This document shows, piece by piece, positions 2-2,795 of a DNA stretch of 22,513 nt. Position numbers and translations under genes: made by a program. Numbering within the stretch: the first letter of the stretch is position 1; every line of letters starts with the position of its first letter. Under the pieces are notes generated by a model. It saw nothing but the letters and a program-made list of their open reading frames with translations, searched no databases and had not been told where the DNA came from. The stretch is from Promethearchaeota archaeon (GTDB taxonomy: Archaea; Asgardarchaeota; Lokiarchaeia; Sigyniarchaeales; SOKP01). Where the stretch lies: contig JAFGOA010000040.1 in the NCBI GenBank assembly GCA_016926735.1, positions 1 to 22,513 on the forward strand. The letters run 5' to 3'.

Positions 2-886
2 ACAAAAGGATATTGGGGTAATGATACTGAAATAATGTATATATTTTCTTCAGATGGAGTAACATGGTCGAATGCAACAGTTATTTCCGATGGATTTAAT
101 GGAGTATATTGGAATAGCGGAAAGAGTAATTGCCCTAATATCGCAGTAGATTATTCTGGAAAGATTCATGTTGTATGGATGGACGAAACAATAGGTCCTT
201 GGTCGTATAATACTAAGGATCAAGAAATAATGTATGCATCTTCTTCAAATGGAGTAACCTGGTCGAATGTAACTGTTATTTCCGAGGGATATAATGGAGT
301 ATATTGGAATAATGGAGGATGTGGTGATCCTATTATTGCAATTGACTCAATAAATAAAATACATATTGTATGGTATGATTTTACAATTGGATCATGGGGT
401 AATGATGGAGAGATAATGTATATAGAATTAGTCGAAGATGATTCTCCCGTTATAATCGATCCTCCTCATTATGAAGATGGAAAAATCATTTGGACTGCTA
501 TTGATGATGATCCTAACAGATATACGCTTACTCGCGGTGAAAGTCTAGTTGCATCTGGTATATGGCAATCTAATGTACCTGTAATAGTTGATATAGGCTA
601 TTTAGATACAGGTAGTTATACATTTACAGTCTCATTAACTGATCAAGCAGGATACAGTGTATTTGACTCAGTTCAATTCATGATATTTTTCAAAATGGGA
701 GATGTAAATCATGATGGAGTTTTAAATATTGTTGATTCTCTACTTGTTGCTCAGTATTATGTTGGTCTTAATCCCTCCCCTTTTTATGTTAAAGAAGCAG
801 ATGTAGATTATAATGGAAATATAGATATCATAGATGCTTTAATGATTGCTCAAGCATATGTTGGTTTGAATGAATTACCTTTCTAG
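2..886 (+). CDS. Secreted/surface protein, 5'-truncated by the window: Asp-box (BNR-like) beta-propeller repeats, an Ig-like segment and a C-terminal type I dockerin
   Basis: The frame is open from position 2 (TKGYWGNDTEIM...), so the ATG at 35 is internal. Repeats contain SSDGVTWS and SSNGVTWS (Asp-box SxDxGxTW-like). The C-terminus has two Ca-binding dockerin repeats, GDVNHDGVLNIVDSLLVAQY and ADVDYNGNIDIIDALMIAQ (about 698-883). Confidence 0.8.
   Translation, partial: TKGYWGNDTEIMYIFSSDGVTWSNATVISDGFNGVYWNSGKSNCPNIAVDYSGKIHVVWMDETIGPWSYNTKDQEIMYASSSNGVTWSNVTVISEGYNGVYWNNGGCGDPIIAIDSINKIHIVWYDFTIGSWGNDGEIMYIELVEDDSPVIIDPPHYEDGKIIWTAIDDDPNRYTLTRGESLVASGIWQSNVPVIVDIGYLDTGSYTFTVSLTDQAGYSVFDSVQFMIFFKMGDVNHDGVLNIVDSLLVAQYYVGLNPSPFYVKEADVDYNGNIDIIDALMIAQAYVGLNELPF
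29..421 (+). repeat. Intragenic tandem repeat of about 62-65 aa (propeller blades)
   Basis: GA(A/G)ATAATGTAT recurs at 29, 224 and 410. GGAGTAACNTGGTCGAATG and AATGGAGTATATTGGAAT are each present twice. Confidence 0.85.
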
Positions 887-1006: not shown

Positions 1007-1588
1007 ATGAGTAGTGAAAAAGAAGGATTAAGAAAGCTAATTATGTTGATTTCAGAATTGAGAGCCAAGGACGAGGAGAGATATGAGGCTCATGTTGATT
1101 TTATGAATCAAACAATTAAAATGATTAGCGCAATAGAATCTCAAATGAATAAACATTGGAAAACGGTTTTAGAATCATTGAAGGAATTAAATGAGAATAT
1201 AAATACTAATTTAGATTCATTACTTACAGGAATTAATCCAAAGGGATTAAGAGAAACATCAAAATCATTAAGAGAAATAATGGATACAATGAATAAAAGC
1301 GTTCAATCTATGAATCTTGAAAAAGTTTTAAGTGAGTTAAAAGAACTAAAGGGAGCTAATATACAATATGTTCCTATGGCGGCTCAAGAGGTTGCTATTG
1401 GACAGCAGCCTGAGCAGATTTCTACTGGCATTGCACCTGTGGGATTAAAAGCTCCAGGGAAAACCGCCTCAACTGCTACCAATCAAGATGCTCAATGGGT
1501 TGATCCTAATGAGGCTGCTGAAAAGAAAAGAAAAAAAGAAGAAGAGGAGCCTCATTTATTGAAACCAAGTGACTTTTTTGGTTCTTAA
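1007..1588 (+). CDS. Hypothetical protein: helical/coiled-coil N-terminus, low-complexity linker, short C-terminal motif
   Basis: 193-aa ORF with heptad-like helical sequence over about the first 115 aa, an A/P/Q/T-rich linker, and a KKRKKEEEEPHLLKPSDFFGS tail. A T-run follows the stop. Confidence 0.75.
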   Translation: MSSEKEGLRKLIMLISELRAKDEERYEAHVDFMNQTIKMISAIESQMNKHWKTVLESLKELNENINTNLDSLLTGINPKGLRETSKSLREIMDTMNKSVQSMNLEKVLSELKELKGANIQYVPMAAQEVAIGQQPEQISTGIAPVGLKAPGKTASTATNQDAQWVDPNEAAEKKRKKEEEEPHLLKPSDFFGS

Positions 1589-1705
1589 ACATTTTTTTAC
1601 TTAATACTAAATATTTTTTTAAAATTTCTACTAATTATAATTAGATTAGAATAACCAAGAAAAAGTCAAATCCATTTTTAAATCTAATTAGATTTTATCA
1701 ATTAC

Positions 1706-1941
1706 AGCAAAAGAAAACACCTTCCTTTCGGGGGCTGATGAATTTTGCTTTTGTAAATCTTTAACCTCTCATCATTTAAAAACAAAAAAAATATAAGAAT
1801 AATTAATGCAACTCATTCGACAAGTTCAATTTAAATCCTTTACATCTATTTTTTGATAGAGGATGTCTGAGCCGCCCATTAGTGTTAGAAATTAATTGAT
1901 GTTTAACCTAAAAATCTCACTCCTTTAGGTGAGTAGTTCAA
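1706..1941 (+). mobile_element. Non-autonomous IS200/IS605-family mini-element (internally deleted IS605/IS1341-type; left end + tnpB 3' remnant + right end)
   Basis: TTAC at 1702-1705 immediately precedes the left-end hairpin AGCAAAAGAAAACACCTTCCTTTCGGGGGCTGATGAATTTTGCT. The right end AAATCTCACTCCTTTAGGTGAGTAGTTCAA ends in TCAA, as in the IS608 architecture (TTAC/TCAA cleavage sites, hairpin with a T-rich loop). No target duplication is seen. Joining 1705 to 1942 restores GCC ATG TAA in frame for the neighbouring minus-strand gene. Confidence 0.8.
1775..1899 (+). pseudogene. tnpB: Eroded 3' tip of a tnpB gene
   Basis: Three fragments in shifting frames: FKNKKNIRIINA (1775-1810), IRQVQFKSFTSIF (1815-1853) and DRGCLSRPLVLEIN* (1855-1899). 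They resemble, from memory, the IS1341-type TnpB C-terminus (F....G..INADxNGAxNIxRK...RG.L..P..). The DxNGAxN segment is deleted and there is a frameshift in a T-run. Confidence 0.6.
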
Positions 1942-2795
1942 ATGGCGCCCATAATATCTGAATAAATATTTAACTTAATATTATAAAATTCATCAATTAT
2001 AGCTAAAAGAAAATCAAAATATTCCTTCTTGTATTTTCTTGTAAAATTCTTTTCAAGAGTATCTTTAATTTGCATTTTGTTAATACTTTCTTTTTTTTGA
2101 GAAAATGTATCAATTATAAAATTTACTTCTTGATGAATCAATTTCATTCTTTTTTTTAAAAGAGGAATTGCTTTATCTTTTTGTTCATAAAATTCAGCAA
2201 TTATGCTATTTATAACTTTTAGATTTTTAGTAAAATTTTTAATCCCTTTAGTTTTCATATCTTGAATAAGAACGGTATTTTCCATTAATTTATTGAGTTC
2301 AAAGGTTTTATCTTTAATAACTTTCACATTATAAGTAAAAAGATCTTTCATAATTGTTTCAAGGAATTTTAATAACATACTCTTATCATTATCATCCAAT
2401 TCTTCACTTATAATTATAACATTCTTTTTTAATAAAATAGCTTTAAAAATATATTCATAAATAATCGTTGGGAAAAAACTTTTTATTAATTTAATTTGTG
2501 TATCGTTTAATGACGATTCTTTTTGAGGATCATAATCAAGACCATCTATTAATTTAATATCGTCTAATAAAATATCTACTTTTTGATATCCTCTAATATG
2601 AAAATTTTTATCTAAATATATTTGAAAATGATGCTCACAGCAATATCCTGGAGGTATACTCACTGTTGTTAGAGTTTTACTAACTTTAATTGAATTTAAA
2701 GGTATAAAGAGATCTTTATTCTTTTTACATTCAGGACATATAATATTAACCTTTATTTTAACATCAGAATCCTCATCTAATTCTATATTTTTCAT
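1938..2795 (-). CDS. Hypothetical protein with N-terminal zinc ribbon (CPEC...CCEHHF)
   Basis: 285-aa ORF containing ICPECK and CCEHHFQIYLDKNFHIRGYQKVD. An AGGTG SD-like motif lies upstream. The stop codon lies inside the mini-IS right end. Confidence 0.8.
   Translation of the reverse strand: MKNIELDEDSDVKIKVNIICPECKKNKDLFIPLNSIKVSKTLTTVSIPPGYCCEHHFQIYLDKNFHIRGYQKVDILLDDIKLIDGLDYDPQKESSLNDTQIKLIKSFFPTIIYEYIFKAILLKKNVIIISEELDDNDKSMLLKFLETIMKDLFTYNVKVIKDKTFELNKLMENTVLIQDMKTKGIKNFTKNLKVINSIIAEFYEQKDKAIPLLKKRMKLIHQEVNFIIDTFSQKKESINKMQIKDTLEKNFTRKYKKEYFDFLLAIIDEFYNIKLNIYSDIMGAI

Follow-up and report, generated by a model that had tools for sequence, protein, structure and literature searches.

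Positions 1699 to 1941 of the window (the whole 22,513-nt stretch that was analysed, which is contig C33 of a genome of 3.88 Mb in 238 contigs) very probably represent a non-autonomous, internally deleted copy of an approximately 1.35-kb IS200/IS605 element that encodes tnpB only, similar in kind to the PATE-like derivatives. The family to which it belongs is of the tnpB-only (IS1341) type and is widespread in Promethearchaeota (Asgard) MAGs. Elements of this sort have already been well described, and as a PATE-like derivative of an IS1341-type element the copy introduces no new mechanism. Nevertheless, for a tnpB-only IS family that is common in Asgard genomes, it allows both ends, the TTTAT target and the probable TAM to be fixed to the base, and one clean pair of occupied and empty sites is available between congeners. 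This information should be of use in masking such relics in Asgard MAGs, in the correct reading of gene ends (the element provides a stop codon for the host gene while leaving its protein unchanged) and in the choice of TAM and guide boundary for work on Asgard TnpB nucleases.

Boundaries and target site of the insertion

The element is located in a 349-bp spacer between convergent open reading frames at 1007-1588 (+) and 1938-2795 (-), in DNA with a G+C content of about 22-30%. A previous sequence-only reading had noted two G+C-richer hairpins in this AT-rich intergenic region, which are indeed seen between the convergent reading frames, and had interpreted them as the ends of a 236-bp IS608-type element. 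The features that define the insertion are as follows:

1699-1941, + strand (the top strand is the + strand of the window): whole mini-element, 243 bp; excision of exactly these bases gives the allele of congener G003
1694-1698, + strand: target and left cleavage motif TTTAT, in flanking DNA outside the element; the empty site (G003:C546) reads CTTTAT/ATTGCT, the slash marking the junction
1938-1941, + strand: right cleavage motif TCAA, the element's terminal 4 nt; homology with every right-end copy ceases after TTCAA, with which the empty site concurs
1938-2795, - strand: host open reading frame, 285 aa, no Pfam match, its last sense codon split by the insertion

Contig C546 of G003 aligns with window positions 1241-1698 (97%) and 1942-2900 (96%) with nothing between, and since the site is empty in this close relative the intervening 243 bp can be identified as an insertion. 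Congener G002 is likewise empty at the orthologous site. The empty allele in G003 reads ...AGGCTTTAT/ATTGCTCCCATAATATC, whereas the occupied sequence in the window reads ...AGATTTTAT followed by the element (CAATTAC...GTAGTTCAA) and then ATGGCGCCCATAATATC. Window position 1698 is joined directly to 1942 in G003 and no bases are repeated at either junction, in agreement with the earlier proposal that there is no target-site duplication. Displacement of the boundaries by one base in either direction fails to reproduce the empty allele, and we therefore place the element at 1699-1941, with a length of 243 bp and no duplication. The G003 allele is equally compatible with a site that was never occupied and with one from which the element was precisely excised, and it cannot tell these histories apart.

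These boundaries bear directly on the assignment to the IS608 type, according to which the element was inserted 3' of TTAC at 1702-1705. This tetranucleotide does occur at that position and the right end resembles that of IS608 (GAAT as the family consensus, TCAA as the cleavage motif), but the empty site places the left junction after 1698 rather than after 1705. Homology between copies breaks exactly after TCAA, as had been predicted, but it does not break after TTAC; it extends a further 7 nt to the left, to 1699, taking in CAATTAC, so that the element is 243 bp rather than 236 bp long. Moreover, the position of TTAC is variable among copies, which read CAATTAC, CAATTCT, CAATTAT, CAATTAA or CAATTAG, and the presumed guide adjoining the left hairpin is AAAA, not AAAG. 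Insertion 3' of TTAC is refuted by the empty-site allele, and a 236-bp IS608-type element is extremely improbable.

The actual target is TTAT, mostly in the form of TTTAT. It directly precedes the left end in 18 of the 19 copies found in a first scan (one of the 18 has G rather than T just before TTAT; the sole exception reads CTAT) and in 11/11 copies from other Asgard MAGs. At the right, all copies of the family terminate in GTTCAA. We presume that TTTAT is the TAM of the family's TnpB. The same pentanucleotide is the target and proven TAM of ISGst2 TnpB, in a genome that also has protein-less PATE-like copies, and the TnpB elements of the archaeon Sulfolobus similarly use an AT-rich pentanucleotide as target, although their TAM is TTTAA rather than TTTAT. 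Just 5' of the insertion site there is a 15-nt inverted repeat (1633-1647/1681-1695, 87% complementary), the right arm of which overlaps the TTTAT target; as it is also found at the empty site of G003, the target would lie at the foot of a potential single-stranded DNA hairpin.

It might alternatively be supposed that the 243 bp are vertically inherited intergenic DNA with a function for the host, for example as terminator hairpins for the convergent genes. On the minus strand, the right hairpin and a T-run just behind the stop of the 1938-2795 reading frame fit a simple terminator pattern, as a pattern match only. The closest relative, however, precisely lacks these 243 bp, and the sequence is multi-copy and bears remnants of tnpB. 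When the orthologous loci of relatives were checked, an empty-site allele (G003) was found and not vertically conserved sequence. Inherited host DNA is refuted as the origin and has hardly any likelihood left as an explanation; any role as terminator would be no more than a by-product of the insertion. As regards the host gene, its terminal codons AT/A TAA are split by the element, whose tip restores AT/T TGA, the TCA of the element supplying the stop TGA. Both the window allele and the empty G003 allele end in ...SDIMGAI before the stop, and the end of the protein is unchanged by the insertion.

In congener G001 the same junction (...CTCTTTAGGGTGTGGTAGTTCAA/ATAGCACCC) contains a different, decayed and repeat-rich insert (L023, G001:C18, about 1225-1523), the interior of which matches other repeat families of the genome carrying the window and not the window element. 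An old insertion shared with G001 was rejected, as the window copy is 94% identical to a copy in its own genome, the G001 flanks are only ~78% identical and the occupant matches other families. The G001 insert appears to have arrived independently at this TTTAT site, which may be a hot spot. Conceivably, the repeated use of this junction is due not to chance but to homing guided by RNA, or to convergent genes offering a strong single-strand hot spot at their 3' ends.

Terminal hairpins and presumed guide tetranucleotides

The two ends of the window copy contain the following features:

1699-1717, + strand: left linker, 19 nt (CAATTACAGCAAAAGAAAA), containing TTAC at 1702-1705; AAAGAAAA is nearly invariant 5' of the hairpin foot
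1714-1717, + strand: presumed left guide tetranucleotide AAAA at the end of the linker (in IS608 the distance is 19 nt and the guide AAAG)
1718-1737, + strand: left subterminal hairpin CACCTTCC-TTTC-GGGGGCTG, degraded in its pairing by a C.C mismatch and T.G pairs; the conserved ATGAAT comes next (1738-1743)
1912-1915, + strand: presumed right guide position, AAAT here and GAAT in all but one other family copy examined
1916-1933, + strand: right subterminal hairpin CTCAC-TCCTTTAG-GTGAG, which is longer by 2 nt in every other copy

Comparison of copies reveals a common plan. At the left end, TTAT is followed by CA plus 16-17 nt ending in AAAGAAAA, an 8-bp hairpin with a TTTA or TTTC loop, and ATGAAT; at the right end, GAAT is followed by an 8-bp hairpin, 4 nt and TCAA. 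The hairpins are on the same strand, in direct orientation and alike, and there are no terminal inverted repeats. The stems vary by subfamily with compensating changes, both at the left (CACCCTCC/GGAGGGTG, CACCGTCC/GGGCGGTG, CCCATTCC/GGGATGGG and CTCCATCC/GGATGGAG) and at the right (CTCACTCC/GGGGTGAG versus CCATAACC/GGTTATGG), while the TTTA loop, AAAGAAAA and ATGAAT remain fixed between subfamilies. A further stem can be drawn around the left hairpin by pairing 1707-1712 with 1743-1748; it reads GCAAAA/TTTTGC in the window and GCTCAA/TTGAGC in the G002 copies. Because these changes compensate between subfamilies, the left end may form a larger, two-tier structure. Folding of the entire region 1695-1950 as DNA or RNA gave no better result than shuffled sequences, the structure signal being confined to the local hairpins.

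The ends of the window copy have decayed from this plan. Its right hairpin is followed by TAGTTCAA and the element ends at 1941, exactly as described beforehand. The suspected absence of about 2 nt from this hairpin, taken as a sign of decay, is supported by comparison with all other copies, which read CTCACTCCTTTAGG(GG or TG)TGAG and have the 2 nt that the window copy lacks. The predicted energy of the right hairpin is -3.1 kcal/mol compared with -4.6 to -6.0 kcal/mol in intact copies, and that of the left hairpin, as single-stranded DNA, is 0 kcal/mol compared with -6.7 to -8.5 kcal/mol.

In IS608 from Helicobacter pylori, 19 nt separate the left cut (TTAC) from the hairpin foot downstream, GL (AAAG) reads CL (TTAC) and GR (GAAT) reads CR (TCAA). 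The window family resembles IS608 in having same-strand subterminal hairpins, the same 19 nt between left cut and hairpin foot, GAAT as the presumed right guide (in the family consensus) with TCAA as the right cleavage motif, and insertion 3' of a tetranucleotide without duplication. It differs in that TTAT/TTTAT is combined with AAAA instead of TTAC with AAAG, in that 8 nt, as against 10 nt in IS608, lie between the hairpin foot and the right cut, and in that the parent element carries tnpB only, without tnpA; there is no nucleotide similarity between IS608 and the family. In the family GAAT occurs together with TCAA at the right and AAAA together with TTAT at the left; the window copy itself has AAAT at the right. 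The correlated change at the left end, from AAAG/TTAC in IS608 to AAAA/TTAT, would agree with the IS608 pairing rule.

Full-length parents and the internal deletion

The window sequence matches repeat copies in its own genome and in those of congeners far beyond chance. Its left block (1693-1791) matches C144 at 94% (E 3.5e-39) and C151 at 78% (with 1690-1960 as the query) in its own genome, where further matches are located on C4, C67, C130, C222 and C71. The right block (1855-1942) matches C160 at 90% (E 9e-28), C173 at 84% and C151 at 81%, again in the same genome. Congener G003 has at least 10 copies of the left end at 90-93%, and the right part is matched there at 92-93%.

On C151 the left and right blocks are 1.35 kb apart on the same strand and enclose a 396-aa open reading frame. 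This full-length copy (C151:17388-18734) encodes a protein with OrfB_IS605 (PF01385, E 2e-18) and Cas12f1-like TNB (PF07282, E 8e-23) domains, which can be aligned to solved structures of Cas12f and TnpB; the alignment takes in the NADxNA motif as well as the second CxxC pair. A second full-length copy, G002:C249, is 1343 bp long and has a 395-aa reading frame; the full-length proteins end with DRGCLNHPLELKIY or DRGCLSRPLVLEIS. As in other elements of the IS1341 group, these parents (C151, G002:C249 and others) carry tnpB alone between ends of the IS200/IS605 type. The expectation that a full-length tnpA/tnpB element would share both ends is consequently borne out for tnpB, in the form of C151, but not for tnpA.

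Comparison with the full-length copies shows that the window element consists of their positions 1-142, a junction of about 14 nt and positions from about 1254 to 1343. Approximately 1.1 kb has been deleted, including tnpB codons ~12-382, while 16 + 14 remnant codons and both ends have been retained:

1806-1856, + strand: tnpB 5' remnant, ATG and a further 15 codons (MQLIRQVQFKSFTSIF) ahead of stops; full-length TnpB starts MQLVRQVQF
1855-1899, + strand: tnpB 3' remnant (DRGCLSRPLVLEIN, then a stop), in a frame different from that of the 5' remnant

Homology to the full-length copies ends at ~1840 and restarts at 1855, placing the deletion junction at about 1841-1854. The longest remnant frame of tnpB has 16 codons and no protein-coding gene is left in the mini-element. 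The proposal of a non-autonomous IS200/IS605 derivative with both ends and no transposase gene is upheld, the ends being those of the full-length tnpB element. Among 41 genomes, no match crosses the deletion junction: each one either stops at ~1840 or starts at 1855, and this points to a one-off deletion product rather than an amplified mini-family.

Among the closest analogues are the PATE-like derivatives related to ISGst1 and ISGst5 of Geobacillus stearothermophilus, which likewise lack genes, have both ends and are presumed to be mobilised in trans. In contrast to the PATEs, the window copy has an archaeal (Asgard) host and degraded ends; it is the sole product of its deletion rather than one member of an amplified mini-family, and no more than 87 nt of its right-end RNA region survive. 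It differs from the IS1341-group elements of Sulfolobus in host lineage and in having lost tnpB.

Its own genome contains one full-length copy (C151, with a weak left hairpin), the deletion copy in the window, two 5'-truncated copies (C160 and C173) and rearranged left ends on C4, C67, C71 and C144; the family looks moribund in this genome. Among the rearrangements, C4:3679-3747 has a left end and, behind it, the reverse complement of that end (TATCAATTACAGCAAAA ... TTTTGCTGTAATTGATA), so that the hairpin lies within a long and almost perfect palindrome. Micro-elements of 47-48 bp are present on C130 (18948-18994) and C222 (30034-30081), and also in L056 (G002:C89) and L072 (G006:C99). Flanked by TTTAT, each consists of a left linker, one hybrid hairpin that combines the 5' arm of the left hairpin with the 3' arm of the right, and TAGTTCAA. 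Such single-hairpin micro-elements occur in several subfamilies and genomes and look like solo scars, comparable to solo LTRs, that arose when the two similar hairpins recombined or when slippage occurred between them.

Two other repeats were encountered during these comparisons. Sequences starting with CAGTACCGAGTATTTTTTT occur six times in two genomes immediately behind the TTTA loop of an IS200/IS605 hairpin (C71:8647, C112:4835, C144:12459 and C174:9481 in the genome carrying the window; C650 and C378, L077 and L078, in G003), as if another mobile element were targeting hairpin loops. A 224-aa reading frame by the CAGTACCGAGTAT motif on C174, running to the end of the contig, has no Pfam match. 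A second repeat family, on C1, C13, C69 and C78 of the same genome, has copies ending in GTGTGTAGTTCAC or GTGTGTAGTTCAT and a conserved right end of ~70 nt (...GGAAGCCACGA.CTTCA.GTCGTGTGTAGTTCAC); this family probably constitutes a separate tnpB/IS200-IS605 lineage, distinguished by its terminal motif.

Right-end RNA and mobility

The right end might have been retained for the sake of an RNA. One further feature is relevant to this question:

1942-1957, + strand: flank 3' of the right end, which would form the guide part were an omega RNA transcribed here, as judged from the known TnpB/omega-RNA layout

According to this explanation, an omega RNA with a guide beginning at 1942 directs a TnpB, such as that of C151, to cut the empty TTTAT-ATGGCGCC site, favouring retention of the copy. 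Protein-less PATE-like elements often encode omega RNAs according to the literature, the genome has an apparently intact TnpB (C151), and the last 87 nt of the element are retained with three predicted stems, one of which shows compensation in a distant copy (GGAUG/CAUCC versus GGGUG/CACCC). However, when the right 230 nt of eight full-length copies are folded as an alignment, five stems are predicted, the first of which is removed by the deletion while the 5' arm of the second is severed. The deletion series in the same genome (C160, C173, C144, C130 and C222) retains stretches of the right end that vary in length, the shortest being half a hairpin, which argues against selection for the RNA; in addition, the deletion junction is common to no other copy in 41 genomes and the terminal hairpin of the window copy is damaged. 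Retention through such an RNA is improbable. We would give slightly less credence still to the mini-element as a protein-less, trans-acting guide-RNA gene, the 87-nt scaffold and flank guide of which would let C151 TnpB re-cut the empty TTTAT. A known RNA gene was also considered and rejected: Rfam searches of 1300-2300 and of two full-length copies returned matches at chance level only, and no tRNA was found.

As far as movement is concerned, the family would be expected to follow the scheme established for IS608 and the ISGst elements. A dimer of a Y1 HUH TnpA would bind both same-strand subterminal hairpins on the single-stranded top strand, and the tetranucleotides 5' of the hairpin feet would pair with the cleavage motifs, AAAA with TTAT in the flank and GAAT with TCAA at the tip of the element. 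The element would leave as a single-stranded circle, the donor resealing as TTTAT/A, and the circle could re-enter 3' of another TTAT. The family's TnpB, together with right-end RNA, would re-cut empty TTTAT sites.

No Y1 TnpA was found in the assembly carrying the window (estimated to be 99% complete), either with the Pfam HMM PF01797 or when three TnpA proteins of relatives served as tblastn queries. The assembly is in 238 contigs and IS-type repeats are often left unassembled, so that a TnpA gene could have escaped assembly. TnpA genes are present in congeners G002, G003 and G006, on elements with other targets (TTAC, TTAA-like). BLAST comparison of the mini-element with six TnpA loci of relatives revealed neither shared ends nor similarity; the TnpA-bearing elements have in common with the family only the general layout, namely AAAG or AAGT, a hairpin with a CTTTAGG loop, and ATGAAT. 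Judged by predicted hairpin energies and the rules for IS608, the window copy is most likely an immobile relic. Its left hairpin is predicted to be unfolded and its right hairpin is short of 2 nt; AAAT stands at the right guide position, just 87 nt of the omega-RNA region remain, and TnpA was not found in the assembly. Mobilisation by a TnpA encoded elsewhere, as had been suggested, appears doubtful for this particular copy.

With respect to the TnpA proteins of the congeners, that of G003 (L032, G003:C396, 396-821, - strand) reads WSPSHVLATTS where that of G002 reads WSPSYFLATTG. The tyrosine at the expected Y1 catalytic position seems to have been replaced by histidine, and this G003 copy may therefore be inactive. 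Elsewhere in the window, a 283-aa reading frame at 35-886 (+) matches the dockerin domain of type I (PF00404, E 4.6e-9), here in the genome of an Asgard archaeon.
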